Below, in pieces: positions 2,333-58,914 of a stretch of 64,000 bases of DNA. The notes under the pieces are model-generated. The model was not told the origin of the DNA, did no database searches, and was given only the letters and a program-made list of their open reading frames with translations. The translations under genes and the position numbers were made by a program. Each line of letters starts with the position of its first letter. Within the stretch, counting starts at the first letter, position 1. Origin of the DNA: a virus; IMG/VR virus record IMGVR_UViG_3300021961_000053, positions 1 to 64,000 of that record. The stretch is one strand, 5' to 3'.

Positions 2333-2855
2333 TCTATTAGAGGGCACCTTTGCTAACAAACGTCAGGCACAAGGACACCCTACTCGTTATGCACATATTC
2401 GGGTTCAACATCGGAAAATTTCCGATTGTCGCTTTTATGGCGAACAAGCATACAACTATCTTCTAAATAGACCATATCGCCAGTTCGTAATTGAAGTGGT
2501 AGATGAGGGTAATGAAGTAGATGGAAACATTTACCGTCTCAAAAACTATGAGATTGAAGACTCTCTAAGGTTTGCGGAATGCAAAAATCTAGAACTTATC
2601 ACTGATGAGATCTTGACATACCGCAAGGGGTGTGATATTATTATGAGGCAAGTCGGTCCAGCAGCATTCAAGGGTGGCACCTCCACCTGCGAGTGCTGGG
2701 TTGATTGGCAAGGCACGAAGACCTACGTTCAAAACGAGGTTCTGCTCACAGAGACAGATTACCAAGTGGTTGATCGTGGTCTTCATGCCGAAACCCATGC
2801 TAAAGTATGGGGGTCCGACTGGGGAGCGTTCAAGTTCGTCAGAATGGGGATGTAG
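2316..2855 (+). CDS. cpeT: CpeT/CpcT-family (T-type) phycobilin lyase
   Basis: Motifs G.F.N..QA..HP..YAHI, YGEQAY....PYRQ, GCD, DRG.......VWGS..G.F.F characteristic of T-type lyases. Confidence 0.9.
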   Translation: MNQFLDLLEGTFANKRQAQGHPTRYAHIRVQHRKISDCRFYGEQAYNYLLNRPYRQFVIEVVDEGNEVDGNIYRLKNYEIEDSLRFAECKNLELITDEILTYRKGCDIIMRQVGPAAFKGGTSTCECWVDWQGTKTYVQNEVLLTETDYQVVDRGLHAETHAKVWGSDWGAFKFVRMGM

Positions 2856-24291: not shown

Positions 24292-24320
24292 AATAAATAA
24301 GTCATACCATAAAGAGCGTC

Positions 24321-25253
24321 ATGGCAACCAGAGTATCCAGTAACGTCGAATTTTATATGAACACCATTGAACGTGTCATGCAATATAAAGGCGTTCAAAA
24401 ACAAATTAACGATGATTATTGGGAGTCTTCTATTGCCCCACTTCTCTACCCATTTTGGGATAATCCCAAAGACAGACTAGAGTTGTTTGTATACAACAAA
24501 GATGATTCTTTCGTTGTCACCAGAAGTAAATACAAGAGAGATTGGAAAACAAATACTTCAACTTGGGTTTCTTATTCGTTTGACCCAACAGCAGCAGAAC
24601 CATCCTCTGTTTCAAATTTTAAGAATCAATTAGTTGAAAAATTTATTGAGTTTAAAGATCTTTCAGACAAGACATACGAAGACTTTATCACTCAAGAGTA
24701 TTCCAGAACAAATAGTTTGACATGGAAGAAGATTCAGTTGGTCAGGAAGTTTCTACTCCAAGATTCTGATTTCATTTTCAATCAAGATTATGAAATCAGT
24801 GATGAGAAAAAAGCGTTGTGGAAACAATATAGAACTTATATTAGAGACATTCCAGAAATTCAAAAGGGAACAGAAACTCCATTTGACGTTGTGTTTCCTA
24901 TCACTCCCGATGAATATTTGAAGAGAAAGGAATTGTATATCGAACCACTAGTTGCTGAGATGGTTGGAGATCAGGGAATCAATGATGATTATTTGACCAG
25001 TTCTTATCATTTCTGGAAACTGAGTGCCCCAAATCTTGCCATGTTTGCACAAAGGTTTAGTTTCTACATTGCTGCTAGGGCAATAACTTCTGATCTTGAA
25101 CCAAACTATCGCATCATGGTAAGTAATTTCATCACTAAATTTACTGCAAACCCAGAAGTTCAGGCTTCAAGAATTAATTCTGAAAATTCTGGTCTTGCAA
25201 CTGATAGTTTTATTGATGATCTGTTAAATAAAATTGAACTTGGAGAGTTGTAA
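24321..25253 (+). CDS. Putative tail fibre assembly chaperone
   Basis: R..LL.DSD......W..YR..IRD.P....V.FP motif; follows fibre genes and late-promoter-like AATAAATA (24292-24299). Confidence 0.65.
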   Translation: MATRVSSNVEFYMNTIERVMQYKGVQKQINDDYWESSIAPLLYPFWDNPKDRLELFVYNKDDSFVVTRSKYKRDWKTNTSTWVSYSFDPTAAEPSSVSNFKNQLVEKFIEFKDLSDKTYEDFITQEYSRTNSLTWKKIQLVRKFLLQDSDFIFNQDYEISDEKKALWKQYRTYIRDIPEIQKGTETPFDVVFPITPDEYLKRKELYIEPLVAEMVGDQGINDDYLTSSYHFWKLSAPNLAMFAQRFSFYIAARAITSDLEPNYRIMVSNFITKFTANPEVQASRINSENSGLATDSFIDDLLNKIELGEL

Positions 25254-25627
25254 TGCTAATCTCAATGGAACCAAAGCGACTGTATGATATAGTTGCTTCA
25301 CATGCAAAATCAACTGGTAAATATGTTCTAGTTGTTAATTATGAAAATATATTCTTTCATACTGAAGAACAGAAAGCATCCCTGAAGGAATTCTATTCGG
25401 ATGCAATTCCTGAAGAAGAAATAGATGAGATTTTTGGATCTCAATATAATTTCTATGAGTTCAATGCACAATCATCTGCTGTTGAAACAGCTACGGATTG
25501 GTTTCCAAGAACCATCGATCTGGATGACATGACATATTTTGTTGAGTGTTATGTCATAACCCCATCTGGTGGAATTCCTCACACAAATAAAGTAACAGCA
25601 AGACCATTGACAGAATCGGAAGAGTGA
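25253..25627 (+). CDS. Hypothetical protein (124 aa)
   Basis: TAATG coupling with upstream gene. Confidence 0.75.
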   Translation: MLISMEPKRLYDIVASHAKSTGKYVLVVNYENIFFHTEEQKASLKEFYSDAIPEEEIDEIFGSQYNFYEFNAQSSAVETATDWFPRTIDLDDMTYFVECYVITPSGGIPHTNKVTARPLTESEE

Positions 25628-25659
25628 TCTATACTTGATTCTCTGTTTCCAAATAGCGA

Positions 25660-25887
25660 ATGAAAGTTCCCACTCAACCTGAGTTGATTCATCTTCAGTT
25701 GCAGGCTATGCTGCGAGATCATAATATTCCAGAGACTGAAGTAAAGTATCTTGGTGATCGTGAATATACTATTGAGTATCAAGCACATCCAGAGTATCAT
25801 GGTAAAATCATGCCGTGGTATTTGATTGCAAATGAACATGAAGTGCCCGTGTGCGACATCGCATCAATTGATGCAGTGGACAATTGA
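25660..25887 (+). CDS. Hypothetical protein (75 aa)
   Basis: ORF; stop lies inside downstream promoter palindrome. Confidence 0.7.
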   Translation: MKVPTQPELIHLQLQAMLRDHNIPETEVKYLGDREYTIEYQAHPEYHGKIMPWYLIANEHEVPVCDIASIDAVDN

Positions 25888-25934
25888 AGAACTGTCACAG
25901 GGGGTCTTCGACCCCCTTTCTCATGCCCTATACT
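25878..25934 (+). promoter_or_regulatory. Palindrome + -10 early-type promoter module with internal terminator hairpin
   Basis: GGACA-N10-TGTCA, GGGGGT-CTTCG-ACCCCC-TTT hairpin, TATACT 31 nt after palindrome. Confidence 0.75.
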
Positions 25935-25956
25935 ATTCTCATCAACGACGCACCGC

Positions 25957-27207
25957 ATGACCCTGACTCTTCGCCCTCACCAGCAGCGTATGCTCGATGC
26001 TCTGCTGACTGCTGCTAAGGGTCGCCTGACCTGCCCTACAGGCGGCGGCAAGACCCTTGTGATGATCCTTGACACCCTGCGTCGCCTGCAGCAGGCAGAC
26101 CGCCCCCAGACCATTGTAGTGGTCTCTCCTCGCATCCTGCTCTCTGTGCAACTCTTTGAAGAGTTCTTTGCTGAGCTGAATGGCAAGGTTGATGTTGCTA
26201 CCCTCCACGTTCATAGTGGTGAGGTTGAAGGCAACAGCACCACCAAGATCGGTGAGATTGCTTGCCATGCTGCTGTGTGTAAGACTGCTGGCATTCACCA
26301 ACTGATCTTCACCACCTACAATTCTCTGCGTCGCATCAACGAGGCAGGTATTGATGTGGATACCATCTATTATGATGAAGCACACAACTCTGTCCGCCGT
26401 GACTTCTTCAAAGAAGTTGCTGCTGCTACTCTGACTGCTAAGCAAGCATACTATCTGACTGCCACTCCTAAGTATCGTGGTGGTGCTATCAGCATGAACA
26501 ACACTGATGTGTATGGTTCTGAACTGATCAATGTCCCTGCTCCCGAGCTGATTGCTAACGGTAGCATCATTCCTCCCACCGTTCAACCTCACGTTGTTGA
26601 TTTTGAGCGCAACAAGTCTCTGCTTGCTGCTGAGAACGACCGTGAAGTGCTGGTAGATATCATCAACAAACTTGATAATGATGCTGCCCAGAAAATCCTG
26701 GTTGCTGCTCCTAACACTCGTGTGCTGTGGGCATTGCTGTCTCAAACCAATGTGATGGCAGAGTTTGCTGCTAAAGGTTATGACGTGCTGCATATTACCA
26801 GCAAGTACGGTGCTTATGTCAATAAGAAGAAAGTTGGTCGTCAAGAGTTCTTTGACACTCTTGATGCATGGGGTAAAGATCCTAGCCGCAAGTTCATCAT
26901 GTTCCACTACAGCATTCTGTCTGAAGGCATCAACGTGCCTGGTCTGACCCATACCATTCTCCTTCGCAATCTTCCTGTGATTGAGATGGCACAGACCATC
27001 GGACGTGTGATCCGTCTTGACCGCCAGGATGCTGCTGATATTGCCTCTGGCAAGATCCCTGCTGGCAAACTTGACTTCTACCGCAAGAAGACTGGTTTCG
27101 TGACTGTACCTGTCTTCACCAACTATGGCAAGCAGACTGAGAAGCGCCTGCAGCGCGTTGTGGATGCCATCTTTGTCAAAGGTGTTGCTGCCACTGAGTT
27201 TGCCTAA
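25957..27207 (+). CDS. Superfamily 2 (DEAH-box, ResIII-like) helicase
   Basis: Walker A CPTGGGKT, DEAH, LTATP, ILSEGINVP, QTIGRVIR motifs. Confidence 0.9.
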   Translation: MTLTLRPHQQRMLDALLTAAKGRLTCPTGGGKTLVMILDTLRRLQQADRPQTIVVVSPRILLSVQLFEEFFAELNGKVDVATLHVHSGEVEGNSTTKIGEIACHAAVCKTAGIHQLIFTTYNSLRRINEAGIDVDTIYYDEAHNSVRRDFFKEVAAATLTAKQAYYLTATPKYRGGAISMNNTDVYGSELINVPAPELIANGSIIPPTVQPHVVDFERNKSLLAAENDREVLVDIINKLDNDAAQKILVAAPNTRVLWALLSQTNVMAEFAAKGYDVLHITSKYGAYVNKKKVGRQEFFDTLDAWGKDPSRKFIMFHYSILSEGINVPGLTHTILLRNLPVIEMAQTIGRVIRLDRQDAADIASGKIPAGKLDFYRKKTGFVTVPVFTNYGKQTEKRLQRVVDAIFVKGVAATEFA

Positions 27208-44336: not shown

Positions 44337-44729
44337 ATGCAGACCTTTAAGACGTTTAAGGATTTAAGCGTCACATTTAAAAAACATCCTATGACCAATG
44401 AGTTACTCACGGTCAAGGATCAGGCTGCAATTAAACAGTCGATCATGATTTTGCTTCTAACAGAAAAGAATGAGCGACTGTTTAAACCCAAATTCGGAAG
44501 TGCTATTTACTCAATGTTATGGGAACCACTCGATTTTGCTAGTGCTGCGATCATTCGCAGTGAAATTGGTCAAGTATTAGCACAATATGAACCACGTATT
44601 AATGTAACTGAGATAATATGCAATCCAGACTTTAACAACAATGGATTTGATGTAGAAGTTCATTATGAAATTATAGGAAGAGACGATACTCCACAAAACG
44701 TAGCTTTTACATTAGAGAGAACTCGATAA
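44337..44729 (+). CDS. gp25: Baseplate wedge subunit gp25
   Basis: AIKQSI..LLLT...ERLF.P.FGS.....L.EP...YEPRI motif; AATAAATA upstream. Confidence 0.9.
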   Translation: MQTFKTFKDLSVTFKKHPMTNELLTVKDQAAIKQSIMILLLTEKNERLFKPKFGSAIYSMLWEPLDFASAAIIRSEIGQVLAQYEPRINVTEIICNPDFNNNGFDVEVHYEIIGRDDTPQNVAFTLERTR

Positions 44730-46526
44730 ATGCCATACGCTCAGATTTCAAATCTTGACTTTAATGATATTAAAGTAGTTCTCAAAGAATACATGAGAAC
44801 ACAGTCAGATTTTACTGACTATGATTTTGAGGGATCCGTTCTCAGCAATCTATTAGATGTTCTTGCCTATAACACTTATTATACGGCATTTAACACCAAC
44901 ATGGCAATCAATGAGTTATTCATTGATAGTGCCACAATCAGAGACAACGTTGTTGCTATTGCCAGACAACTTGGATATAGACCAAGATCTATTACCAGTT
45001 CAACAGCATATGTCAATTTTACAGTTGAGTATGCAAATCCAACAACTGATGTAGAACTAATCCTCAGAAAAGGAACAGGATTTGTTGCATCATTCAATAA
45101 TAAGGTTTATCAATACGTAACACCTGTAGACGTAAAAACACAGGTGGTGAATGATGTCGCAACTTTCACTAACGTTTTAGTAAAAGAAGGCACCCAGATA
45201 GAGAATCAGTTTATTGTCAATACTTCCAATAAATCACAGAGATTTATTCTAGACAACAGAAATATAGATACTGATACGATTCAAGTAGAAGTCTTTGCAG
45301 ATGGTTCTAGTTTTAGCGAACCATATCTTCTTGCTGACAACATCCTCGATGTAACTTCAACAACAAAAGCATTTTTCCTCAATGAAATCGAAGACCAACG
45401 ATATGAGTTGATCTTTGGTGATGGTATCATTGGAAAGAAACTTGATGATCAATCTTTAGTTGTTGTTCGTTATGTTGTTACTAATGGTCCAGAAGCAAAT
45501 GGAATCAGAACTTTTGTATTTTCTGGAATTTTAGAAAACGAGTTTGGCATTTCCCCACTATCATTCGATACAAGTATCAATTCCACAGTTGCAGCAACTG
45601 GTGGCGAAGCAATTGAAAGCATTCAATCGGTAAAATATAGTGCTCCAAAAACATTTGGCACACAGAATAGAGCAGTTACAGCATCTGACTATTCTGCACT
45701 AGTGAGAAATGCATATCCATCGGTTGGAGACATTATTGTTTTTGGTGGTGAAGATCAAGACCCACCTCAATATGGAAAAGTTTTTATCTCTGTAAAACCC
45801 AGAGATTCTGCATATCTAACTTCATTTAGTAAGCAAAAAATTCTTGATGAATTGAAAAAGTATTCGGTGGCATCTGTTCAAGCAGAAATAGTAGATCCAT
45901 CAATACTCTACGTTGAATTAAACAGTAAGATATTCTTCAATAGTTCAACAACAGATCTAACAGCATCTCAGATAGCAGCACTTGTAACAAGAAATTTCCA
46001 ATCTTATATTGAAAGATCTGATACAGAAAAGTTCAACGGAAAGTTTAGATTTAGTAAAGCAGTTAGCGTTATTGATGATTCTGCTAAAGCAATCAATTCC
46101 AATTTAACTACTGTTAAAATGAGGAAGGATTTTTATCCACAGTTGAACTCTACAACATATTATGAAATATGTTTCCAAAATGCATTTGATAAAGATTGTG
46201 ATGGTCCAACCCTTTCTACGACTGGGTTTAGAGTAACCGAGTATCCGAATTTTGATGTCTATTTAGAAGATAGGGATGGCAAAATTGTCCTATATAGACT
46301 AGATGCTATAACTGGTGAAAAAGTTGTTCTAGACAAGGAAGTTGGCGATATTAATTATGAAAAAGGTGAATTGATGATGTATGATCTAACAATAATTAAA
46401 GGATCATTCTTTGATAATCGTATCTCAGTTAGAGTAAATCCACTATCTAATGATATCAAGGCAGCTCGTGAAGTTTATCTTGATGTTGATGTAGCAAATT
46501 CGACCTTCATTGCGTACAAAGAGTAA
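44730..46526 (+). CDS. gp6: Baseplate wedge subunit gp6
   Basis: LDF..IK..L..Y.....FTDYDFEGS....LLDVLAYNTYY; QNRAVTA.DY; YGKVFIS.KP. Confidence 0.92.
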   Translation: MPYAQISNLDFNDIKVVLKEYMRTQSDFTDYDFEGSVLSNLLDVLAYNTYYTAFNTNMAINELFIDSATIRDNVVAIARQLGYRPRSITSSTAYVNFTVEYANPTTDVELILRKGTGFVASFNNKVYQYVTPVDVKTQVVNDVATFTNVLVKEGTQIENQFIVNTSNKSQRFILDNRNIDTDTIQVEVFADGSSFSEPYLLADNILDVTSTTKAFFLNEIEDQRYELIFGDGIIGKKLDDQSLVVVRYVVTNGPEANGIRTFVFSGILENEFGISPLSFDTSINSTVAATGGEAIESIQSVKYSAPKTFGTQNRAVTASDYSALVRNAYPSVGDIIVFGGEDQDPPQYGKVFISVKPRDSAYLTSFSKQKILDELKKYSVASVQAEIVDPSILYVELNSKIFFNSSTTDLTASQIAALVTRNFQSYIERSDTEKFNGKFRFSKAVSVIDDSAKAINSNLTTVKMRKDFYPQLNSTTYYEICFQNAFDKDCDGPTLSTTGFRVTEYPNFDVYLEDRDGKIVLYRLDAITGEKVVLDKEVGDINYEKGELMMYDLTIIKGSFFDNRISVRVNPLSNDIKAAREVYLDVDVANSTFIAYKE

Positions 46527-46530
46527 ATAA

Positions 46531-49500
46531 ATGGCAATTAAGACCAAAAAAATCTCTGCTCTTATTGAGTCTCAACTTCCTAATTTTATAGTTGATGAGT
46601 ACCCATTGTTCTCCAAGTTTTTGGAGAAGTATTATGAGGCACAGGAAAATAGTGGGCAACCTCTAGATCTTGCTAATAATATCTTAGAGTACGCAGATAT
46701 TAATTATTATGAGTCTAATTTGCTCAAGGAAAATACTCTATTGAGTAGCACTATCTCAGCATCAGATTCAACTATTGTGTTGGATGCTGGAGATTCATTC
46801 CCAGATAAAAATGGATACGTCAGAATTAATGACGAGATTATTTTTTATGGCAGGAGAAATGGAAACATTCTCACAAACTGCTCCAGAGGCGTCAGTGGCA
46901 ACACCACCCTAGGAGATTTATACGAACAGTCTTCATTCGTTACTACAGAGGCAGCAGGACACGTCTCAGGGTCTGTTGTATATAACGTAAGTAATCTTTT
47001 CCTGTATGCTCTTATCAAGAGCTTTGAATCTCAATACCTGGCATCATTTCCAGAGAAATATCTCAAGGGTGCGGTAGACAAAAGAACCCTTATCAAGAAT
47101 ATAAAGCAGTTTTACAAAACAAAAGGAACCACTGCTTCTATTAGATTCATTTTCAACTCTATTGTCGCAAAAGACACTAGAGATGTCCCAGAAACATATA
47201 ACCCAACAGATTACACATACAAGGCATCTAATGCCGATTGGATTAATGTATTTGCTATAAAAGCAAAGGTTGTATCTGGAGATCCAAATGATCTAATTGG
47301 AAAGGTCATTGTTCAAGAAGAAACCGATGAATATGGATATGCATCAGCAACTGTTGATAATGTTTATCCAGATGGTACTTCCGATGGAGAACAAATTTGG
47401 AACATTGTTTTAGCACCAGAAACAGTAAATGGAACTTTTGCAATTTCCACTAAGACTCGCTTAGAAAAAGAACTACAAACAACCGATGGTGTTGGAAAGA
47501 GAGTTAATGTTTTCTCTACAGTAGGATGGGGAAAGACTGGGGAAATTCTAATCGGTGATGAAATAATTAAATTTGAAGAAAAAAATGTAACTCAGTTTGT
47601 AATCAAGAAAAGAGGAAATATAACCTACACTCATAGTGTTGGTGCTTCTGTATATAAACCAGTTACTATTTCTGGATCCAATGTCACTATGCTGACATTT
47701 GGTGTTGTCTATAATTTGAAGCCAAATAATTTACAACCATATTCCTTTACTGGAGATAAAGTTCAGATTTCAAATCCTGGATTTGAAACCTCAGATCCAA
47801 AGATTGTATTAAGTGGAACAAATCAAGTACGCTGGTTGTTAAATCGCAACCTTCCTGTAAGCATTACATCAATTCCATTATTACAAACTTCTCTTGATGA
47901 TGTCTCTACTGATGTATCTGCTATTTTTAGCGATGATCAATACTATTACATCACAACCTCTGGTTTTCCATCTTATAACATTCTCAATGGTTCTACAGTA
48001 ACTCAGACTGTTCAAGATCAGAAGATCTTACGTATTATAAGAAAGCGAGCAACTAGAACTACAGAAAAATATAATACTCCAAAATCTGAAGTTGGAATTC
48101 TACTGAACGGAGCTAGAGTTTATTGTCATAAAGATTCTGAAAGCATTCGATATGGAAAACTAGAGAGTATTGCAGTTAATACTCAAGGAAGTGGTTATGC
48201 TAAACCACCTTTTGTATTACTCGACGGTGTTCCAAATAAAGCAAGAGCAATTCTTTCTGGATCTGTTGTTGAAAGATATGTTGTTGATACAAAAGATACG
48301 TTTAGAAGAACACCAGTTGTAGAAGTAACATCTGGCAGAGGAGCAGTTGTTCGTGCAATTGTTACTGGAGATAAGATTACATCTTTGGTTATTGATAACC
48401 CTGGCGAATACTATTCGTCCCCACCACTTATTAGAATTACAGACAAGAATGGAAAGGGAAGATTCGCGGATTATACATCTGTTGTAAACACAGATGGAAA
48501 AATTACTGGGTTTATCAAAAATGATGAAGGAACTTTCTACAATCAGAATACTGTAGTAGTTGATGTTATTCCTGTCGGTAAAGGTGCAACAGCAACTCCA
48601 TTTTTGAAAGAATGGAATTTCAATAGATTTGAAAAGTTAAAAACCAATCTTGATTCCGAGTATGGATATGTTTTCAAGAATTATAATAACGTTTTAGAAT
48701 ATGGTTATGGACACGTAGCAAATCCAAAAGCACTCAGAGTTGCACTCAATGATAACTTGGGTCCTTCTGGGATCGAGCCATCCACAAAAGTGCATTCCCC
48801 AATTATCGGATTTGCTTATGATGGAAATCCAATTTATGGTCCTTTTGGTCATCAGAATCCTTTAGATCCACAGTCACCTATTGCTAGAATGACTTCTAGT
48901 TATTCTAGAAAAGGAACTAGGGCAGATGGTCCTTCTATGACGACATATCCATTGGGATCATTCACAAATGATTATGTTTATACTCATAAATCTGGGTCTC
49001 TAGATGAAAATAATGGAAGATTCTGTATTACTCCAGATTATCCAGAAGGGGTTTATGCTTATTTTATTACAATCGATAGTAATCAAGTACCACAATATCC
49101 ATATATTTTAGGGGAAAATTTCTATTCACTTCCAGTTGAAAGTAATTATGCTTCTGACATCAATCAAAACGATATTCCAAAAAATTCAAAAAGGTTATTC
49201 GTTCCTGGTATGCCACAGAATGGAAGTGGTGTTGTTGCAGAAATTGCAGAAGTAAAATCTGGAACTGTCGATGCAATCAGTATTGATAGATCATCCGATA
49301 ACTTTTCTGTTAATTCTAAACTGTATTTTGACAATAGAGGGACGGATGGATCTGATGCCGAAGCACTGGTAGAATCGGTAAAAGGAAAAGTAGTATCTTA
49401 CCTCGATAGTTATGAAAACAAAGTAGTAAAACTAACTACGATTCAAAATGCATATCTCTTTACAGATGATACATTAAGACAACCATCGTCTGGAGCATCT

Positions 49501-52500
49501 GGAGTTATTGTTGGTGAAGTTAAAAACGACAATGTTGTTGTGTTAAAAAATGTTGTTGGCACTTTTGATAATACAGGAACATTTTCAGCAGACATCAAAA
49601 CTTTCTTCATTCTTTTAGATCAAAAGAGTTCTTTTACAAAAGGTGCTACAATAAGCCTTACCGATGGTATAAATCCACCTATTGCCACTGCAGAAATCTT
49701 AAATGGAACTGCTGCTCAGAATGTAGTTGAAATTAAGGTTGAAACTGGAGATTGGTTACAATTTAACCAAGCGGATTACTTCTTACAATCAGATAATCTA
49801 TTTGACACATCTGGAACCAGACCAGTTATCCTCACTTCTTTAAGCGATAATTTGGAACCATTTGAAGTAAATCAAAGTGTTGCTCTTATTGAAACAGCAT
49901 CAAATCATGGTCTTGGAGTTGGTGATAAAGTCAATGTTGATATCTTCCCAGATGATGCATCTAAAACCAAGACGTACTATTTGAGAAAAAGATTATACCA
50001 GGATGTTGTATTAAAAGCACCTCAATTTAAGACTTCTATAAATGACACTGGAGTTGGAAGATTTCAAATTTTAAATGGTGGAGCTGGTTATACTCCAGGA
50101 ACATATACTAATGTACCACTGACTGGTGGATCTGGAAGTGGTCTGACAGCTACTATTACAGTTTCCAATGCTGGTATTGTATCTTCAATACAACTTCAAA
50201 ATGGTGGTAATGGATATAAAAAAGCAGATTACCTTGGAGTTGACGATGAATCTTTACAAAGATCTGTTAATTTTGGCAGCACTCAGAGGTTAGCATTATA
50301 TGTTGATCATGTAGGATTTGCTTCTGGATCTACAAATCTCACTCTTGATAGTGTAACTGGTATCTCTGAAAATGATTTGATTTTTATTGGAGAAGAAATT
50401 ATTAAAGTTTCTTCAATTGCAGGTAAAACTCTTACTGTTTTGAGAGCAAGAGAGAACACAATCGATGCAGATCACTATAATGGTCAAGAAGTATCTTTGT
50501 ATAAACCAAGATACAATTTTGATGCGAATTTCCAAGTAGGATCTGGAATTGGTAGTGGATACATTGCTTCTTATGATTTAGAAACTCAAAAAGCAACTAT
50601 TGTTTATGACTATTCCACATTAAAGGAAACGGCAAAAAATGTAAAGATAAGTACCACTTTCTTTGATAATAGTGTTCCTTCTAGATTGGTTTCTATTAGA
50701 ACTGTAGATCCAATAGAATATAAATTTGAATTTTCAGAAGATAACGTTAATTATATTCCAAACCCAACTATAGAGATACAGGAATATTACAAATACAAAT
50801 TTGACACATCACATTCATCACTAACTGGAACATATTTTGATTTGAGTCCTAGTAAAAATTATAATGTAATTACAACCGAGAAATTAGCATCCAACATTCT
50901 TCCTGGAAACCCTGGAGCATTTACAGATGTTAAATTTGGATTTGGACCAAGAATTGCTGGAAATAATTATCAGACAAAAACAGGAACGGATTTTACGAAT
51001 TTCTACTATTTTGACAAAAAGGGAATCGTAGATTCGGATGGAAAATATCTAAAGATCATCACAGATCCACTTCAAGGTGAAAAGGTATTAAATTATGTTA
51101 CTCCAAACAGATTTGTATATAATATTGTAGATCCGCCCCTTTGGGACGGATCTGGTTCAATCACATATACTACTACTGGACAATTTGCAGTTGGTGAATT
51201 AAATTCCATCAAGATTACAAATCTTGGATTAAATTATAAAAAAGTTCCAGTTATTGCTGGCATTGATCCAAACCAAAACTTTAAAGCAAAAGCTACAGTT
51301 TTATTTGATGCTGCAACTAGCACTATAACTGGAGTTTCATTGGATGATAAAGGATCAAACTACACAAATCCAAAAGCAGTTATTATAGATGGTGATGGAA
51401 TTGATGCAACATTTAATTTGGTTGTTAGAGATGGAAGTATTTTCTCAATTACTATAGGTAACCCAGGAAGAGGATATACATATGCTCCTACTATTGAAAT
51501 TGTTGAGGGTGATGTAGAGGCATATGTTGATAGCTCAACTATAGGTATTCCACAAAGTATTAATATCATAAGAAATGGTGGGGCATTTCATTTAGATAAG
51601 ACAATATCTTCCAAATTTGAATCGAAATACACAGTTTCTCTCAAGAACTTTAGTGGAAATTTCCAAAGAGGGGAAACTGTTATCCAGAAAATTGGTCAAA
51701 CAGAAATTTCTAGATCAACAGTATCTGAATGGAGACTTGGATCTAATCTTCTCAAACTAGAGAATATTAGAGGTATCCTTAGAGAAGACATTGCAATTGA
51801 AGGATTGGTGTCTCGTGCAAATGGAAATGTGAAGGCAGTATATGCTACCACCTTTGCAGAGAGCATAACTGCTTTCTTTGACAATGTTGGATATTACAAA
51901 TCTGATAAAGGAAAACTTGGTGTATCAAATCAAAAAATTACCGATAGCTTTTTCTATCAGGACTATTCATATGTAATTAAGTCTAAGACTCCTATCGAAC
52001 AATGGAGAGACTTAATCAAGTCAACAACTCATCCAGCTGGATTTAGACTATTTGGGCAAGTTGATATTGAAGCTTCTGCACAAGTTGAAATGCCAGTAGA
52101 GATGCCAAAAGCATCGCACTATAGTGTAATTCAACTTTGGGATCCAAACAAAAATAAAATAACGGTAGAAAATACCAGAAGGACAATAACTCAAACTATC
52201 CAGAAGATAGAGAACCAAAGAATCCGAAAAGGAGTTGGATCCGCTGCTACATCAGAGTTTAATTTCAATGAATCTCGTGCATTCACATTTACACTCAATG
52301 GATCTTTTGATGGATATTATGATTCAAATGGCAGATTGCAAGGAACAACGACTTTCCAGATACTAGACGATCAAGGATTCCCATTCTTCCCAGCAAGTTC
52401 TAAGAATTTGATTGTAACTCTGGATGGAATTCTTCAAGAACCAGAAGTAGCATACACTATTTCTGCAGATAATATCATTTTCTCCCAACCACCACTTGGA

Positions 52501-55500
52501 CCATATCAGAAACTGACTGGCAGTACATTAACAGCTCTTACTCCATATGCTGGCGTTACTTTCTACGGTAGATATTTTAGTTTCAAAGATAGTCAATATA
52601 ATACAAGGTACTTTAAAAAGATTAGAAACATCTTCCAGAGAAATGGAAGATGGTTGGATGCTGCTAATCAAATTGAAAGAAACAGAAGTTTCATCGTAGA
52701 GGAATCTATTGGTTATGGAAGATCAAAGTATCCATCACTAGATTGGAGCACCAAGCAAGATGATTATGAGAGAGATCTGGGATATATTCTTGATGCGTAT
52801 CAACATGATATTAGATTTGGTGGTAATGTAAAGACTGTTGATTATGTTTCTTTCTTTAATCAAGATACTGATTATGATTATATCACAGACAACAAAGTTC
52901 AATCACTGAGCATATTTAAGTATGCCACCAACTTGGCAAAACTTTCCGTTAGAAATTGGGATGTTGTAGAAACTGGAGTATCTTATATTCAAGGATCTAA
53001 AGTAGTTATAGTACAAGATACTAATAATCTTGCTGTTGGTATGCATATTAGTTCTGGGAGATCATACGCTCCAGGAACAAAGATTGTTTCTATTGATAGT
53101 GCTACTCAAGTTACATTGTCACATGCTGCTCTTGCTAACTCTGGTGGTGGTGGTGGAGCTCCTGATGGAACTACCACATATAGTGGAACAAGCGGTGGTA
53201 ATGTTACTGCTCCTACAAATACTGTTGCTATTGAGCCAGGTGATACTTTTGCGGTTGAACCAGGAGATACTTTTATAGCTCCAGTATCATTCTCTGGATC
53301 AGATACGGCAACATTCTTCTTCAGCGGAATCAACAGTGGAACGTTCTATGATGCTGCCAATTTAATCTCATACAATAAAGAGTATCTACAAGAAGAAATC
53401 AGTGGATATATCTATGACAACTATACCCTATCCACAGATGTAAGCAAGTGCTATAGAGATCTTGGTTACCTAGTTGATGCTATCACATACCATTTAAAAT
53501 TTGGTGGAAATGAGAAGGTTGTAGAGTTTGCAAGACTTTACTATACAAATGCTGGATATCCATATGGAGAGGAACTAACCTATATTAATAGAACTGCAGA
53601 AGAAACTGCTGCTGCTATTGATGCATGGGAAAAACTTGGAGAGAAGATGATTCTTGCCATGAGGAATTCTCTTGGCGCTGGAGCATATACAGCAATTCTT
53701 CCAGTTACAGATACTTCAATTGCTGTTGATCCAGTTTCACCATATTGTTCCGAAGTGGCATCTGCTATCAACTCTTATGTTGATATAGTCAAGGATATTC
53801 TTGCAAACGGAACTGGTGCTGTAGATTCAGTTGGAATCAACGCTACCAAACCTGGATATTGGACTGATACAAAACCATCTATTGATTATAATCTAATCCC
53901 AGATCCTTCAAAACCAGGAACAGGTGAGTGTGATGATGTTGTCTCTGCAATTGATTCTCTTTATGATAATGTTGATGATGTCCTTGCAGAACTATTGGTT
54001 GCAAAAAATCTCCCAGATTATGTCGACGGAGAAAATAAAGTATTTGAGTTGTATTGGGATGATGATACAGAGGTTTCTACAGAAGAAGATGAAGATCTAT
54101 TCTTAATGATCAATGCTGTTCTTCAAAGACCTAAGTACAATGCAGAATACCCAGGTGGTGATGCATACTATATTGATAGAAACACGATTCCAAATAAACT
54201 AGTCTTTGATGTTGCTCCAATTTGGGACCAAGATTTTGGTGCTAAGAGCATTGGAGAACCAACTGCTGTGGAGAAAGTGGTCGGTATTGGTGTTGGTAAC
54301 TATAAGAGACTAACAATTGACTATAATCTTGTCAATGGAGTTAAGACTGGACCATTCCTAATCCTTGATGTTGAGGACAAAACAGTTCAGAGTGTTGAAG
54401 AGAAGGAATATCTGTATGTCTTCTTAGATGGTGTTTTACAAAGAGAAGGATATAGCTACATTGTTTCTGGTCCAAATATCTATTTCAATGTTCCTATTAA
54501 GAAGGAAATGAAGATTGATATGAGATATCTCTATGGTAGAGATGTCGGACAGATCCTAAACATTTATGATTTTGCTCCAGATACCTATTTTGCTACTGGT
54601 ACTTTTATTATAGAGTCTAGTTCATCATTGATTAATGATTATTTGAGCTATAGATGGATGGGAAATCTTTCTGGATTTGGAGTTCATTGTTGGCAACAAA
54701 GACCAGATGGAACTTACAACGTAATTGGAAAACTTACCAATCCATATAGAACTTCGTCTGAAATCAAGTTTGATGTTGTAAGATCTCAGAACGCAACTAT
54801 TATTCCTGGATTAGATATTGTATTTGCTGTTGAGGGCAGATATTCAAGAACATTCACTCTCCCAACATCAGAATTTACAAATGCAACTTTAACATTAGAA
54901 GTTGATGAATTTGGAAGAAAGATACTTTCAAGTGAAGATGCTTATTGGTATGGAACTTTCTTCAGAAGATTCCACAAAAATCCTTTCGTAAGCCTATCTA
55001 ATGGCGACAAGATCCGCGTAGAAGGAGAAGATAAATTCAGAAGTATTAAAGTTCTCCCGCAAAAAACCACATCAAAAGATGGCAGAGATGGAGAGCAACT
55101 ATCAGATGACATATATGGATCTGTTGAGGTAGAGACTTATAATGGTATTACTCGCGGAGAAGGTCTCAGTGTTGTTGCAACTATTGAAAATGGAAGTGTT
55201 GTTTCTCTATCTTGGAACCAACGCAGCTGGGATCCACTGACTCAACCAACAGCATATCAGTATTTTACACCACCTGTTCTTGAATTTGTTCCAGAAAATG
55301 GAGATGGCGGCGGCGCAAGAGCCGAAGTAATAGTAAGCAAAGGTCAGGTTATCAGTGTTGATCTTCTTGATGGTGGTTCTGGATACACCAAGGCACCGAA
55401 GGTTGTTGTTGCCAGAAGATATGAAATTCTTAATGAGAGAGACATTGGTGTATCACTAATTCGCGTGGGAATCAATCCATACGTTGAACATGCTGGAATG

Positions 55501-57048
55501 ATTGTTACATCAACTATTGATACTCTTGGCAATCAAGTTTCTGGAATTAATACATTTACATCAATCGTCTTTAGTAGTCCAGTTGATGCATCAAGAAAAA
55601 TTACTGCCCAAATTCAGTTAATTGAAGCCACAGGCAGCGAATTACAAAGAGCAGGGGCAGAATTTTTAGGAATTCGAGATGATGATGCAGATAACGTACA
55701 AGTAATTGATCTATTTACTGCGACCAATCAATATATCTCACAAATTTCTGGTCGTGTTGCGGATATTATTTCAAACTCTATTGTAACTGCTAGCAGACAA
55801 ATCACCACCACTGTAGATGTGTTACTACAGAATGATGCCTTGTCAAATATCAATTACTATGAGGTTGGTGCATATCTTGATATTGATCTTGGTCTCACAG
55901 ACACTATTGTTTATATTCCAGATACAACCAAATTTAAATCAAATGGTTATCTATTGATTGGAAATGAAGTTGTTCGCTACATGCGTAAGCTGAATGATCG
56001 TTTCCTCAAGGTAGAAAGAGCACAAAATAACACAACAGCACAGTTCTGGGCTGCAGGAACATTTATCAGGCAGATTCCAAATCCAGTATCTGTTGCATTT
56101 GGAGGCGTTGCTGTTATTCATTCCGATGCTTCTGTAAGCATGGTTGGTGCTTTTGCTGGGGTTGGAGCAGCAGGAGATGGACAAGATAGAGTTCGCTATC
56201 AACAAATAGAATCTCCAAGTGTGACTGTTGTATCAACTTCCAGAGTAATTACTGCAGAGATACAACCAGAAATTAATATTCAGTCTATAACAGAAACATA
56301 TAGTTTTGTAAAATATAGGTTAGAGACTTCCGTTGATAGTATTAAATCAATCATTGTTTCTCATGAAGCAACTGAGACAAGAGCAGAAATTCAGTCTGTT
56401 CAATCTCAGTTTGTAGTTCAAAGAGCAGCAACAGAATTGGTATTGACACCACCACCTTCTGGTATTATTGATAGATATGAAGAAAGTGTTTACATAGATG
56501 ATCCAATCAAAACAAGATTGAATGGATTTGTAGATATTCTCAATGATTATGGTGTCGTTCAAAGAAGTTCAAATATAATTTATGTTTCCAACTCCATATT
56601 TGGAAGCGGTAGTGAATATTTTGGAAACTACACTAATTCAAATGCTGGATATGTTATTAAACATTTTGATGGAATATTTGACGATGGATTTGCTAATGTA
56701 TCTGGATTGTCAATTCAAGAGATTACTACGTACTTCTCCGCATTAACTCTTCGTGATTTTACGGAAAGAAAAAATTCTCAATATACTCTTTCTGGCGCTA
56801 AATTTAATTTATTGCCACCATCAATACAAAATCCAGTCAGTATTAGTTCTTCTTCTGGAACAATTGTTGGATCAATATCTGTGCAATCAACAACATATTT
56901 CCCCGAGGAAGGATATCTATTCAGTTCTGGTGGAACAGTCATTCAATATACAGGTAAAACATCAACAACCTTTGACGGATGTACATTGCATAAAGGACCA
57001 GACTTGATCACTGCTGGTGATGAGTTGGTTCCATATTCAATTTCCTAA
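46531..57048 (+). CDS. gp7: Baseplate wedge initiator gp7-like (3505 aa) with YHYH-like domain and two phycobiliprotein-like domains
   Basis: Position between gp6 and gp8; FY.TKGT..SI.F.F and DSFFYQDYSYVIKS....W.......HPAGF motifs. Confidence 0.8.
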   Translation: MAIKTKKISALIESQLPNFIVDEYPLFSKFLEKYYEAQENSGQPLDLANNILEYADINYYESNLLKENTLLSSTISASDSTIVLDAGDSFPDKNGYVRINDEIIFYGRRNGNILTNCSRGVSGNTTLGDLYEQSSFVTTEAAGHVSGSVVYNVSNLFLYALIKSFESQYLASFPEKYLKGAVDKRTLIKNIKQFYKTKGTTASIRFIFNSIVAKDTRDVPETYNPTDYTYKASNADWINVFAIKAKVVSGDPNDLIGKVIVQEETDEYGYASATVDNVYPDGTSDGEQIWNIVLAPETVNGTFAISTKTRLEKELQTTDGVGKRVNVFSTVGWGKTGEILIGDEIIKFEEKNVTQFVIKKRGNITYTHSVGASVYKPVTISGSNVTMLTFGVVYNLKPNNLQPYSFTGDKVQISNPGFETSDPKIVLSGTNQVRWLLNRNLPVSITSIPLLQTSLDDVSTDVSAIFSDDQYYYITTSGFPSYNILNGSTVTQTVQDQKILRIIRKRATRTTEKYNTPKSEVGILLNGARVYCHKDSESIRYGKLESIAVNTQGSGYAKPPFVLLDGVPNKARAILSGSVVERYVVDTKDTFRRTPVVEVTSGRGAVVRAIVTGDKITSLVIDNPGEYYSSPPLIRITDKNGKGRFADYTSVVNTDGKITGFIKNDEGTFYNQNTVVVDVIPVGKGATATPFLKEWNFNRFEKLKTNLDSEYGYVFKNYNNVLEYGYGHVANPKALRVALNDNLGPSGIEPSTKVHSPIIGFAYDGNPIYGPFGHQNPLDPQSPIARMTSSYSRKGTRADGPSMTTYPLGSFTNDYVYTHKSGSLDENNGRFCITPDYPEGVYAYFITIDSNQVPQYPYILGENFYSLPVESNYASDINQNDIPKNSKRLFVPGMPQNGSGVVAEIAEVKSGTVDAISIDRSSDNFSVNSKLYFDNRGTDGSDAEALVESVKGKVVSYLDSYENKVVKLTTIQNAYLFTDDTLRQPSSGASGVIVGEVKNDNVVVLKNVVGTFDNTGTFSADIKTFFILLDQKSSFTKGATISLTDGINPPIATAEILNGTAAQNVVEIKVETGDWLQFNQADYFLQSDNLFDTSGTRPVILTSLSDNLEPFEVNQSVALIETASNHGLGVGDKVNVDIFPDDASKTKTYYLRKRLYQDVVLKAPQFKTSINDTGVGRFQILNGGAGYTPGTYTNVPLTGGSGSGLTATITVSNAGIVSSIQLQNGGNGYKKADYLGVDDESLQRSVNFGSTQRLALYVDHVGFASGSTNLTLDSVTGISENDLIFIGEEIIKVSSIAGKTLTVLRARENTIDADHYNGQEVSLYKPRYNFDANFQVGSGIGSGYIASYDLETQKATIVYDYSTLKETAKNVKISTTFFDNSVPSRLVSIRTVDPIEYKFEFSEDNVNYIPNPTIEIQEYYKYKFDTSHSSLTGTYFDLSPSKNYNVITTEKLASNILPGNPGAFTDVKFGFGPRIAGNNYQTKTGTDFTNFYYFDKKGIVDSDGKYLKIITDPLQGEKVLNYVTPNRFVYNIVDPPLWDGSGSITYTTTGQFAVGELNSIKITNLGLNYKKVPVIAGIDPNQNFKAKATVLFDAATSTITGVSLDDKGSNYTNPKAVIIDGDGIDATFNLVVRDGSIFSITIGNPGRGYTYAPTIEIVEGDVEAYVDSSTIGIPQSINIIRNGGAFHLDKTISSKFESKYTVSLKNFSGNFQRGETVIQKIGQTEISRSTVSEWRLGSNLLKLENIRGILREDIAIEGLVSRANGNVKAVYATTFAESITAFFDNVGYYKSDKGKLGVSNQKITDSFFYQDYSYVIKSKTPIEQWRDLIKSTTHPAGFRLFGQVDIEASAQVEMPVEMPKASHYSVIQLWDPNKNKITVENTRRTITQTIQKIENQRIRKGVGSAATSEFNFNESRAFTFTLNGSFDGYYDSNGRLQGTTTFQILDDQGFPFFPASSKNLIVTLDGILQEPEVAYTISADNIIFSQPPLGPYQKLTGSTLTALTPYAGVTFYGRYFSFKDSQYNTRYFKKIRNIFQRNGRWLDAANQIERNRSFIVEESIGYGRSKYPSLDWSTKQDDYERDLGYILDAYQHDIRFGGNVKTVDYVSFFNQDTDYDYITDNKVQSLSIFKYATNLAKLSVRNWDVVETGVSYIQGSKVVIVQDTNNLAVGMHISSGRSYAPGTKIVSIDSATQVTLSHAALANSGGGGGAPDGTTTYSGTSGGNVTAPTNTVAIEPGDTFAVEPGDTFIAPVSFSGSDTATFFFSGINSGTFYDAANLISYNKEYLQEEISGYIYDNYTLSTDVSKCYRDLGYLVDAITYHLKFGGNEKVVEFARLYYTNAGYPYGEELTYINRTAEETAAAIDAWEKLGEKMILAMRNSLGAGAYTAILPVTDTSIAVDPVSPYCSEVASAINSYVDIVKDILANGTGAVDSVGINATKPGYWTDTKPSIDYNLIPDPSKPGTGECDDVVSAIDSLYDNVDDVLAELLVAKNLPDYVDGENKVFELYWDDDTEVSTEEDEDLFLMINAVLQRPKYNAEYPGGDAYYIDRNTIPNKLVFDVAPIWDQDFGAKSIGEPTAVEKVVGIGVGNYKRLTIDYNLVNGVKTGPFLILDVEDKTVQSVEEKEYLYVFLDGVLQREGYSYIVSGPNIYFNVPIKKEMKIDMRYLYGRDVGQILNIYDFAPDTYFATGTFIIESSSSLINDYLSYRWMGNLSGFGVHCWQQRPDGTYNVIGKLTNPYRTSSEIKFDVVRSQNATIIPGLDIVFAVEGRYSRTFTLPTSEFTNATLTLEVDEFGRKILSSEDAYWYGTFFRRFHKNPFVSLSNGDKIRVEGEDKFRSIKVLPQKTTSKDGRDGEQLSDDIYGSVEVETYNGITRGEGLSVVATIENGSVVSLSWNQRSWDPLTQPTAYQYFTPPVLEFVPENGDGGGARAEVIVSKGQVISVDLLDGGSGYTKAPKVVVARRYEILNERDIGVSLIRVGINPYVEHAGMIVTSTIDTLGNQVSGINTFTSIVFSSPVDASRKITAQIQLIEATGSELQRAGAEFLGIRDDDADNVQVIDLFTATNQYISQISGRVADIISNSIVTASRQITTTVDVLLQNDALSNINYYEVGAYLDIDLGLTDTIVYIPDTTKFKSNGYLLIGNEVVRYMRKLNDRFLKVERAQNNTTAQFWAAGTFIRQIPNPVSVAFGGVAVIHSDASVSMVGAFAGVGAAGDGQDRVRYQQIESPSVTVVSTSRVITAEIQPEINIQSITETYSFVKYRLETSVDSIKSIIVSHEATETRAEIQSVQSQFVVQRAATELVLTPPPSGIIDRYEESVYIDDPIKTRLNGFVDILNDYGVVQRSSNIIYVSNSIFGSGSEYFGNYTNSNAGYVIKHFDGIFDDGFANVSGLSIQEITTYFSALTLRDFTERKNSQYTLSGAKFNLLPPSIQNPVSISSSSGTIVGSISVQSTTYFPEEGYLFSSGGTVIQYTGKTSTTFDGCTLHKGPDLITAGDELVPYSIS

Positions 57049-57102: not shown

Positions 57103-58914
57103 ATGGCTGCTATTATCTCTGATAAGTTTAGAATTTTTAATGCGAAACAATTTCTTGAATCGCTAACTGAGGGTGCTACGGATACTAGCGCCGAGCGTTC
57201 CAGAATGTATTTCTTTGTGGGTCGCCCACAACCCTGGAAAGCGTACTTAGAAGTTTATTCTAAGTCGGCAACCAACTTTACTGTTGGCAACGAAGTTTAT
57301 GTCGGAACATATGGATCAACAGCGTTCCGTGCCACAGTTTCTGCCGTTTATGATAGTGCCCTCCTCCTAACCGACATTTTTGGCAGCAACGGTGTTAATT
57401 CTGCTCCTTCTTTAGGCAGCACTCTAAAAGAGACAGCAGACGGTGGTGTTAGTGATACTGCAGCCACAGCAACCACTGGTGTCTATCGCTACGCTACTGA
57501 AGATGTGCCACCACTTCCTCTTGATAACCAAAGAGAGAAGATCGCTCTTTACGACGAAATTATTGCTGCTAAGCGCGTTACTGATGCATATGCAAGAACA
57601 GTTGTTCGTCGTTATAATTGGGATCTAGTTGCAAATCCTAAGTTTGACATGTGGAAACCTGATTACTCTGCTACTCCTGGTGGTGGCGGTCAAATCGGTA
57701 AGCAAACCGCGACTGGTGCAGACAACATTTCAGATGCTAAGTTCTATGTAATGAACTCTTCATATGAAGTATTCAAGTGCCTCTATAATGGTGAGAATCC
57801 TTCAAACACAACTGGACAGAATGCAACTGAAGAACCATTAACTACTGGTGCTAACTATGATGCTGGTACTGGTCTCTACACCGAGACAACAGGTGCTGGT
57901 TACATCTGGAAGCACATGTACACTATCCCAACTGACGATGTTCTGAAGTTCCTTTCTTCGGATTTCATGCCAATCGTTCTCCCATCACAACCTTCTAGAG
58001 TGGCAGTTGCTGGTCTTGCAGTTCCTGGTGCTGTTGATGTTGTTTTAATTGAAGATGCGGGCAATAATTTACCAGCATCTCAAACTCTTTACACAGGCAT
58101 CAAGGGAGATGGAACTGGTGGTGTAATTGAGTTTGTTACAGATGGTACTGGAAGCATTACTTCCGCATCTGTTGTTGCTCGTGGTTCTGGTTACACTTAT
58201 GCCAATGTTCTCCTTGGAAACGGTAATTTATTCTCAAACCAAGCACTGTCATCCGCTGTTGCAACTCCAGGTGGAGCAACTGGAGCTCTAGAAGTTGTAA
58301 TGCCTCCTCAAGGTGGTCATGGTTCAGATCACGAGATCGAACTAAATGGTAAGCGTGTTATGACGAATATTCGTCTAACTTATGCGGAAGGTTCTGGAGA
58401 CTTCCCAGTTGATAACGATTTCCGAAGAATCGGTATTATCAAGGATCCATACAACTATGGAACCACAACATATTCAACTTCAGATACTTTATCTGGTCTT
58501 CGTGCAATCAAGATTACTGGAGCATCTGCAGACTTTATTCCTGATGAAACTATTTCACAAACAGTAAGTGGTGGAACCGCATATGGAACAGTTGTTTCTT
58601 GGACCCTAGATTCTGGTTCAACAACTGCTGGTGTTCTTAAGTATATCCAAACCAATGATGCACACACAGATCAAGGTGTAGTAAGAGCTTTTGCAAGCAA
58701 CGGTGCTAATGCAATCTCTGGCGGACTCTCTGCTGCTTCTGGTAATGTCGATACTGGATATGCAAATACACTTCTAGGAGCAACATTTGCTGCTGGTCTA
58801 GCAACTCCAGAAATTGAAAACAACTCTGGAGATGTAATTTACATTGAAAACCGTCGTCTAATCACCCGTGCTCCTGACCAGATTGAAGATATCAAACTGG
58901 TTATTGAGTTCTGA
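57103..58914 (+). CDS. gp8: Baseplate wedge subunit gp8
   Basis: MAAIISDKFRI.NA..F; FYVMN..Y.V.KCL.N; GY.WK.MYTI; YIENR..I.RA.DQ.EDIKLVIEF. Confidence 0.9.
   Translation: MAAIISDKFRIFNAKQFLESLTEGATDTSAERSRMYFFVGRPQPWKAYLEVYSKSATNFTVGNEVYVGTYGSTAFRATVSAVYDSALLLTDIFGSNGVNSAPSLGSTLKETADGGVSDTAATATTGVYRYATEDVPPLPLDNQREKIALYDEIIAAKRVTDAYARTVVRRYNWDLVANPKFDMWKPDYSATPGGGGQIGKQTATGADNISDAKFYVMNSSYEVFKCLYNGENPSNTTGQNATEEPLTTGANYDAGTGLYTETTGAGYIWKHMYTIPTDDVLKFLSSDFMPIVLPSQPSRVAVAGLAVPGAVDVVLIEDAGNNLPASQTLYTGIKGDGTGGVIEFVTDGTGSITSASVVARGSGYTYANVLLGNGNLFSNQALSSAVATPGGATGALEVVMPPQGGHGSDHEIELNGKRVMTNIRLTYAEGSGDFPVDNDFRRIGIIKDPYNYGTTTYSTSDTLSGLRAIKITGASADFIPDETISQTVSGGTAYGTVVSWTLDSGSTTAGVLKYIQTNDAHTDQGVVRAFASNGANAISGGLSAASGNVDTGYANTLLGATFAAGLATPEIENNSGDVIYIENRRLITRAPDQIEDIKLVIEF

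Follow-up and report, generated by a model that had tools for sequence, protein, structure and literature searches.

The window analysed here comprises positions 1 to 64,000 of the IMG/VR virus record IMGVR_UViG_3300021961_000053 (64,000 nucleotides, nt) and contains a 3505-amino-acid (aa) open reading frame (ORF) at the position of the baseplate wedge gene gp7. Within this ORF, aa 2038-2486 very probably consist of two copies of a module homologous to phycobiliproteins, one nested inside the other. Comparison of sequences and profiles identifies the module as a diverged homologue of the globin-type core of phycobiliproteins, with helices A to H predicted by alignment (from about phycobiliprotein position 28/38 to 146/178), and indicates that T4-like cyanophages build it repeatedly, and often in nested form, into their giant virion proteins. 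The known phycobiliproteins serve cyanobacteria and red algae as soluble antenna subunits, and a role as a building block of virion baseplates or fibres is a new context for them. One cyanophage lineage keeps a gene for a bilin lyase, cpeT, directly upstream of a module-rich giant gene. The coordinates of all features are given in Table 1.

The two copies of the module, which is about 155 aa long, occupy positions 52642-53988 of the window. The outer copy is split just ahead of its last helix, where a linker (aa 2166-2268) and the whole inner copy are inserted. In the inner copy the site comprising Cys2307 (codon 53449, TGC), a Tyr, Arg2309 and Asp2310 is intact, together with a coupled Tyr at position 71 of the module hidden Markov model (HMM), and a second Cys, Cys2406, is encoded at 53746 (TGT). 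In the outer copy Tyr2079 (codon 52765, TAT, in the motif DYERDLGY) replaces the equivalent of phycobiliprotein Cys84 and Phe replaces the coupled Tyr at HMM position 71, with Arg and Asp retained; Cys2467 (codon 53929, TGT) lies in the C-terminal part of this copy. The motifs and Cys codons were correctly placed in the original prediction, and the nesting proposed there is recovered as three stretches with an HMM of 35 sequences. The same order of outer N part, inner copy and outer C part, with the motif pair DYERDLGY / KC.RD.GY, is found in a 3515-aa ORF of phage S-RSM4, so the nested arrangement appears to be inherited and stable. Several IMG/VR module sequences in the 35-sequence alignment are likewise broken before the last helix by the start of the next copy. 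BLASTP and phmmer comparison of the inner stretch with the large ORFs of the window reveals repeats in the 3505-aa ORF and many in the 4480-aa ORF, whose 14 HMM stretches bear out the view that two proteins share the module. Relatives of the 4480-aa ORF among phage records (tblastn) are annotated as tail protein or short tail fiber protein. The first alignment was made from five copies of the window, and the HMM from 35 copies, made up of the inner copy, four of those in the 4480-aa ORF and 30 from IMG/VR, the last drawn from 80 loci retained out of 543 confirmed. A match to PHROG 17105, a family of unknown function, bridges the junction of the outer N part with the insert (aa 112-162 of the query). 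The insert itself (53026-53334) contains a short beta-looking stretch, a direct peptide repeat (AIEPGDTF / AVEPGDTF) and a Gly/Thr-rich run.

Kinship with phycobiliproteins was assessed with single sequences, profiles and profile-profile alignment. The inner motif KCYRDLGYLVDAITYHLKFGG was compared with two proteins of a marine Synechococcus genome and is identical at 11 of 21 positions to the one that is CpcA/RpcA-like and at 12 of 21 to the one that is CpeA-like; the first count is the one originally predicted for phycocyanin alpha, and phmmer of the region against the PDB yields the identical ungapped alignment of the motif with that chain. Searched as a single region, six of eight PDB matches (E up to 10) are phycobiliproteins, at E values of 0.1-0.8 that are not significant. 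A module profile of five sequences gives 45 phycobiliproteins among 48 PDB matches (best E 0.009), and a profile of 35 sequences matches 81 PDB sequences at E<=1, of which all 60 listed are phycobiliproteins or engineered derivatives (smURFP and similar). The best of these is C-phycocyanin alpha (E 3.7e-7), and by this comparison phycocyanin alpha chains are the closest solved relatives, as had been proposed; in the short motif phycoerythrin alpha is as close. Profile-profile alignment, suggested earlier as a check, aligns the 35 copies with ten phycobiliproteins cut from one marine Synechococcus genome (hhalign probability 96.2, E 2.6e-9), with module positions 10-112 lying on phycobiliprotein positions 38-146 over 100 columns. 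Overall identity is about 16%. In Pfam, the phycobiliprotein family PF00502 is a precomputed label on 9 of 43 longer proteins found with the inner copy, and its curated cut-off is passed by all six relatives scanned (25.0-41.1 bits), one of which covers profile positions 32-153 of 155. A genome scan with PF00502 gives 15.6 and 13.8 bits for the 3505-aa ORF itself.

The second motif was also put forward as a likeness to beta-phycocyanin, with 8 of 13 identities. Against three marine Synechococcus beta subunits the count is 4-5 of 14, the stretch reaches only 3.4 bits by HMM, and the C-terminal 50 residues alone find no PDB match by phmmer at E up to 10. The second motif was therefore dropped as independent evidence of homology. 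What stands is a positional equivalence, in that an extended hhalign alignment with beta subunits (probability 82, E 1e-5, 141 columns) places the second Cys of the module on the Cys of the beta 'GDC' motif.

A HMMER scan of 1.84 billion representative proteins finds 1,582 proteins at E<=0.001, of which 641 reach E<=1e-30, with up to 36 module stretches in one protein. The residues of the site were surveyed in the best 150 of the 1,582 together with the longer matches of the inner copy (192 proteins and 1,828 stretches, a set biased towards high scorers). In the 1,670 stretches that cover the first motif, Cys41 is conserved in 96%, Arg43 in 94%, Asp44 in 99% and Tyr71 in 97% (module numbering), and the full Cys-Arg-Asp triad is present in 1,533. 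The second Cys is found in 259 of 605 copies. Comparison of copies with the first Cys (n=1,581) and copies without it (n=61) separates two groups of residues. Arg43 falls from 96% to 49%, Asp44 from 100% to 72% and Tyr71 from 99% to 57%, whereas Asp55 (97% and 100%), Asn61 (82% and 90%), Gly59 (74% and 82%) and Gly46 (78% and 70%) are unchanged. The four residues are thus lost together, as one site; judged from these sequences, Cys, Arg, Asp and Tyr71 show the behaviour of one functional site and not that of fold-stabilising residues.

A disulfide between the two Cys residues was considered as the reason for conservation of the first and rejected. The 566 uninterrupted whole copies divide into 224 with both Cys, 323 with the first only, one with the second only and 18 with neither. 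Thus 323 of the 547 whole copies with a first Cys have no second one, and a single Cys is all that 251 of the 566 contain, which rules out that the Cys is conserved for the sake of a disulfide and agrees with the earlier argument, made from the outer copy, against an obligatory Cys-Cys bond.

In phycobiliproteins, Cys84 forms the thioether bond to the bilin, Arg86 contacts its propionate and Asp87 its pyrrole nitrogens. We infer that the module retains a ligand site inherited from phycobiliproteins, formed by Cys-x-Arg-Asp at the equivalent of helix E and the coupled Tyr. That at least the inner copy binds a bilin is a tentative proposal, with chances that fall just short of even. In the proposed scheme, Cys2307, Arg2309 and Asp2310 of the inner copy would most likely hold a covalently bound bilin, which would be loaded within the infected cell from host bilin or bilin made by the phage. 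Cys2406, at the position of beta-Cys153/155, would be a candidate substrate site for the T-type lyase CpeT of the phage. The outer copy, in which both the first Cys and the coupled Tyr are substituted, would be degenerate and mainly scaffolding.

The link to a bilin lyase is genomic. The full-length cpeT of the window lies 740 nt upstream of the 4480-aa module ORF on the same strand. Three other phages likewise have cpeT and module stretches next to each other. In S-PM2, cpeT (163,961-164,470) is accompanied by module stretches at 166,207-170,376, in Syn1 (19,950-20,462) by stretches at 21,462-26,288, and in S-RSM4 (176,535-177,038) by stretches at 169,996-173,577 on the minus strand. Synteny was surveyed with the module HMM in 80 IMG/VR loci encoding a CpeT 65-81% identical to that of the window. 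A module-bearing frame opens 270-3472 nt downstream of cpeT on the same strand in all 39 loci where the downstream DNA extends for 5.5 kb or more, in 7 of 12 with 3-5.5 kb and in none of 29 with less than 3 kb; no module was found upstream of cpeT or on the opposite strand in the 80 loci. Copies downstream of cpeT carry the second Cys in 138 of 141 cases, against the 259 of 605 of the general set. In beta subunits the position of this Cys is the site served by T-type lyases, as reported in PMC10452541.

Co-occurrence of module and CpeT, raised in the original prediction, was tabulated for 20 phage genomes, eight of which were known to be module-positive when chosen. Both are present in 14, the module only in two (P-SSM7 and S-ShM2), CpeT only in none and neither in four (Fisher p = 0.003, for related and hence non-independent phages). 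The CpeT status of the cluster C phages was taken from PMC10665884. Prediction of a CpeT-module complex gave weak support, with a score of 0.46 (runs of 0.58, 0.05 and 0.46) against 0.02 for the best of three controls. Among 80 solved complexes 58 attain the mark for this prediction, as do 2 of 110 mismatched pairs; at a score of 0.60 or under, only 7 of the 80 solved complexes and both mismatches attain it. Contact agreement across the runs was at least 0%, the predicted local distance difference test (pLDDT) value of the partner at least 73 and that of the module 74-78.

The named phages that have the module are all T4-like cyanophages. In tblastn searches of 50,697 phage records, the inner copy matches 256 records, which by name are Synechococcus (196), Cyanophage (49), Prochlorococcus (10) and 'Marine' (1), and a divergent copy from a jumbo phage matches 63 records with the same types of name, including one 'Marine'; assignment to the cyanophage type is by record name, and the single 'Marine' record of each search was not inspected. 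The HMM, run over whole records, finds the module in 16 of 19 cluster A/B cyanomyoviruses and does not find it in P-SSM2, S-SM2, S-SSM7 or the podovirus P-SSP7.

The module was also sought beyond named phages. When one genome for each prokaryote species (185,579 genomes) is scanned for the motif, 40 loci result, where roughly 35 would be expected by chance on a rough estimate. Real module copies are present in 18 of the 40, all on contigs of metagenome bins with varied labels. The bins that were checked contain cyanophage-type Gp23 genes, and one contains psbA, so that mis-binned cyanophage contigs explain much of this occurrence, not all of it. A jumbo-phage contig of 335 kb (335,231 bp, in a bin labelled Neomarinimicrobiota) carries seven module copies in three ORFs, three of them with C-x-R-D and four with all three positions replaced. 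Its capsid gene shares 64-69% identity with the capsid genes of Sinorhizobium phage Phosso, Vibrio phage 2.275.O and Pseudomonas phage PA5oct, and in a second bin a like capsid gene and module copies lie on separate contigs. None of five cultured PA5oct-like jumbo phages has the module. The jumbo-phage contig is the main fact against a module restricted to cyanophages, and a strict confinement is not upheld, since this contig is uncultured, carries the module and belongs to a bin without psbA, hli or cpeT. The refuting condition of the original prediction, a domain common in phages of non-phototrophs that lack bilin genes, was only partly escaped. The module occurs in no phage of a known non-phototroph (0 of 5 PA5oct-like phages; 256 of 256 and 63 of 63 records are of the cyanophage type by name, with the two 'Marine' records as noted), yet this one contig has it.

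Several observations weigh against bilin binding, or against the kinship on which it depends. The whole 3505-aa ORF reaches 16.4 bits with PF00502 (aa 2028-2070), below the cut-off of 22.2 bits. Module alignments start at phycobiliprotein position ~28-38 and so do not include the N-terminal X-Y hairpin, for which abutting tandem copies also leave no room; this hairpin is the part that makes the alpha-beta pair in phycobiliproteins. The B-E loop, part of the wall of the bilin pocket in phycobiliproteins, counts 8-10 residues fewer in the module. The outer copy has no first Cys, and many cluster-B-type copies read C-x-[D/T]-D and not C-x-R-D, so the figure of 94% for Arg is biased to top scorers. 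The synteny with cpeT was observed for a single CpeT lineage (65-81% identity) and could reflect a gene order passed on by descent, and in most cluster B phages, where CpeT is shorter and more divergent, its gene does not neighbour module genes. P-SSM4 (NC_006884) has three copies in a 7312-aa frame, with the first Cys in none and the second in 0 of 2, despite its CpeT. S-ShM2 is without CpeT, yet both Cys are present in all four of its copies, and P-SSM7 likewise has the module without CpeT. The module is found by HMM in none of five cluster C cyanomyoviruses, which include lyase-bearing phages. In the bin of the jumbo contig psbA, hli and cpeT were not found, though C-x-R-D copies are present. 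No description of phycobiliprotein-like domains in cyanophage virion proteins was found in the literature searched, a search that left supplementary files outside, and we know of no report of pigmented cyanophage particles.

For the cluster C cyanomyoviruses, an S-type bilin lyase is reported in four of five, without psbA or hli (PMC10665884), and a scan for CpeS found an S-type lyase in two of the five. A strict link between phage lyases and the module is not upheld, given the cluster C lyases without a module, the Cys-less copies of P-SSM4 and the occurrence of the module without CpeT in S-ShM2 and P-SSM7. P-SSM4 offers a natural 'site-less' phage for comparison.

The main rival of bilin binding is a pure scaffold, in which a captured phycobiliprotein gene has become a rigid, self-insertable helical brick that lengthens baseplate and fibre proteins and carries no chromophore, with Cys, Arg, Asp and Tyr serving packing or a buried polar network. 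This is a substantial possibility, if one with clearly less than an even chance. Nesting and up to 36 stretches per protein resemble a structural repeat, and the shortened B-E loop and lost X-Y hairpin fit the same picture. Copies without a site are retained, e.g. the outer copy here and in S-RSM4, and those of P-SSM4 are all Cys-less; the jumbo contig carries the module in a bin without photosynthesis or bilin genes, and coloured virions are not known to have been reported. However, packing would not predict that three bilin-contact residues are kept at 94-99% given ~16% overall identity, nor would it predict their joint loss where fold-type positions are kept. A lone conserved Cys is also unusual in a particle protein exposed to sea water, and the adjacency of cpeT would be left unexplained.

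A functional site with a ligand other than bilin, such as a host surface component, a metal or another cofactor, would make the modules receptor-binding or enzymatic domains. It would account for residues that act as a coupled site, tail-fibre and baseplate proteins are the expected place of receptor-binding domains, and sites are intact on the jumbo contig though its bin has no cyanophage-type genes. Against this, the region matches only PF00502 in Pfam and only phycobiliproteins among the listed PDB matches, the parent family uses the same residues for bilin, and restriction to cyanophages among named phages and the cpeT link fit bilin better; another ligand is thus distinctly improbable. 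A chance or convergent likeness of an unrelated helical repeat to phycobiliproteins is hardly credible and no serious rival, since the non-significant single-sequence scores (E 0.1-0.8; 16.4 bits in Pfam) and a second motif that alone matches nothing are outweighed by the profile match (E 3.7e-7, only phycobiliproteins among 60 listed matches), the hhalign probability of 96.2 over 100 columns and the six of six relatives above the curated Pfam cut-off, so that homology is well supported.

Bilin-carrying modules in a baseplate or fibre would bear on the light dependence of cyanophage adsorption. According to Liu et al. 2019, adsorption in darkness fails for P-HM1 and P-HM2 and succeeds for P-SSM2 and the podovirus P-SSP7, S-PM2 depends on light independently of host photosynthesis, and whether a host receptor or the phage tail fibres sense the light is left open (PMC6628666). 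Module stretches with intact sites number six in P-HM1, six in P-HM2 and 12 in S-PM2, and there are none in P-SSM2 and P-SSP7. The presence of the module thus tracks light-dependent adsorption in five of five phages, a tiny and phylogenetically lumpy sample of related phages, and the match is a lead only. A role of the pigment in light-dependent adsorption or in baseplate triggering is unlikely on present evidence. The same low expectation applies to the wider proposal that the virions of many T4-like cyanophages are pigmented, with CpeT-aided bilin modules in the gp7 wedge and a giant fibre acting as a light sensor that would gate adsorption or baseplate triggering. If true, a light sensor in the virion would explain the light-dependent adsorption of S-PM2 and of P-HM1/P-HM2, as well as why cyanophages carry genes for bilin lyases and bilin synthesis, even phages of Prochlorococcus strains that are nearly devoid of phycobiliproteins.

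The module can be compared with several known systems. It is homologous to phycobiliproteins (PF00502; nearest CpcA and phycoerythrin alpha) over predicted helices A-G, and to the end of helix H against beta subunits. Cys2307-Tyr-Arg-Asp of the inner copy aligns with K-C-A-R-D of phycocyanin alpha (the Cys84 position), and many copies have a second Cys at the beta-Cys153/155 position. Phycobiliproteins are free subunits of ~17 kDa that possess the X-Y hairpin, whereas the phage module is repeated and nested in virion proteins of 3,000-7,000 residues, is without the hairpin and has the shorter B-E loop described above. The conserved Asp55, Asn61 and Tyr71 of the module are its own and not shared, and the 3505-aa ORF itself fails the PF00502 cut-off. 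The nearest architectural precedent is the phycobiliprotein domain of the phycobilisome core-membrane linker ApcE, which likewise lies in a large multidomain protein and is interrupted by an insertion. In a 1045-aa Synechococcus frame, which we take to be ApcE, PF00502 matches as two stretches (profile positions 2-54 and 66-150). Attachment of bilin to ApcE is lyase-independent. The ApcE domain is cellular, intracellular and single-copy, with its insertion in the B-E loop, whereas the phage module is extracellular, multi-copy and mostly broken before the last helix by whole further copies.

Gp7 of phage T4 shares with the 3505-aa ORF the gene position between gp6-like and gp8-like genes and the baseplate-wedge PHROG matches. 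T4 gp7 is about 1,030 aa long; the 3505-aa ORF is more than three times this length and carries YHYH and phycobiliprotein-like inserts, a distinction drawn without a module scan of T4 gp7. Bilin photoreceptors may resemble the module in working mode only, with a Cys-linked bilin whose light-driven change moves the protein. They include phytochromes and cyanobacteriochromes, and the alpha subunit of phycoerythrocyanin is also photoactive. No GAF, PHY or PAS family was found in a Pfam scan of the whole 3505-aa ORF (E up to 1).

Two questions are made experimentally addressable by the module, namely the light sensor in light-dependent cyanophage adsorption and the true substrate of CpeT and of the genes for bilin synthesis in phages. 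Bilin binding by the modules would make this the first virus particle to have a chromophore built in. Without it, the modules would still be a clear example of how a photosynthesis gene of the host has been converted into virion architecture.

Table 1. Features of the window considered in this analysis, with positions in nt of the window.
Feature	Position	Strand	Basis
cpeT, full-length T-type bilin lyase homologue (CpeT/CpcT)	2316-2855	+	PF06206, 132.8 bits, E 1.6e-38, profile 2-181 of 181
4480-aa ORF, more copies of the same module	3596-17038	+	14 HMM stretches
gp25-like baseplate wedge gene, upstream of the 3505-aa ORF	44337-44729	+	PHROG 261, E 6e-49
gp6-like baseplate wedge gene, upstream of the 3505-aa ORF	44730-46526	+	PHROG 219, E 5e-202
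3505-aa ORF with two modules, at the gp7 (baseplate wedge) position	46531-57048	+	ORF list and translation
Outer module, N part, aa 2038-2165 (predicted)	52642-53025	+	HMM 1-128, 93.3 bits, E 1.1e-29
Insert splitting the outer module, aa 2166-2268	53026-53334	+	Translation; no module HMM match
Inner module, complete, aa 2269-2431 (predicted)	53335-53823	+	HMM 1-157, 190.4 bits, E 1.4e-59
Outer module, C part, aa 2442-2486 (predicted)	53854-53988	+	HMM 110-151, 14.8 bits, E 1.5e-5
gp8-like baseplate wedge gene, downstream of the 3505-aa ORF	57103-58914	+	PHROG 438, E 1.8e-173

The gene order around the 3505-aa ORF, read from the PHROG matches of its neighbours, is gp25, gp6, 3505-aa ORF and gp8. 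The ORF itself has an end-to-end match to PHROG 4406 ('virion structural protein') and further matches to the baseplate-wedge PHROGs 2885, 708, 17744 and 438, and its orthologous matches in P-HM1 and P-HM2 are annotated as gp7 (tblastn, phage records). Pfam Baseplate_wedge (PF23786) stays below its cut-off (24.2 bits against 27, at aa 1801-1841 only). Because of the PHROG matches, the neighbouring genes and the orthologues annotated as gp7, we accept the ORF as the gp7-position baseplate wedge protein, with the reservation that the Pfam match is sub-threshold. As a baseplate protein it may belong to the machinery that triggers contraction. The protein also contains a YHYH domain (PF14240, E 3.6e-28) at aa 751-854 (48781-49092). 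Elsewhere in the window, a small ORF at 6-347 on the plus strand matches Pfam Phage_OMP (PF24653, a cyanophage outer-membrane-protein-like beta barrel; E 7.5e-19), and a match to the phage tail assembly chaperone family PF16778 (31.3 bits) is given by an ORF at 24321-25253 on the plus strand, the next after a 1505-aa structural gene.

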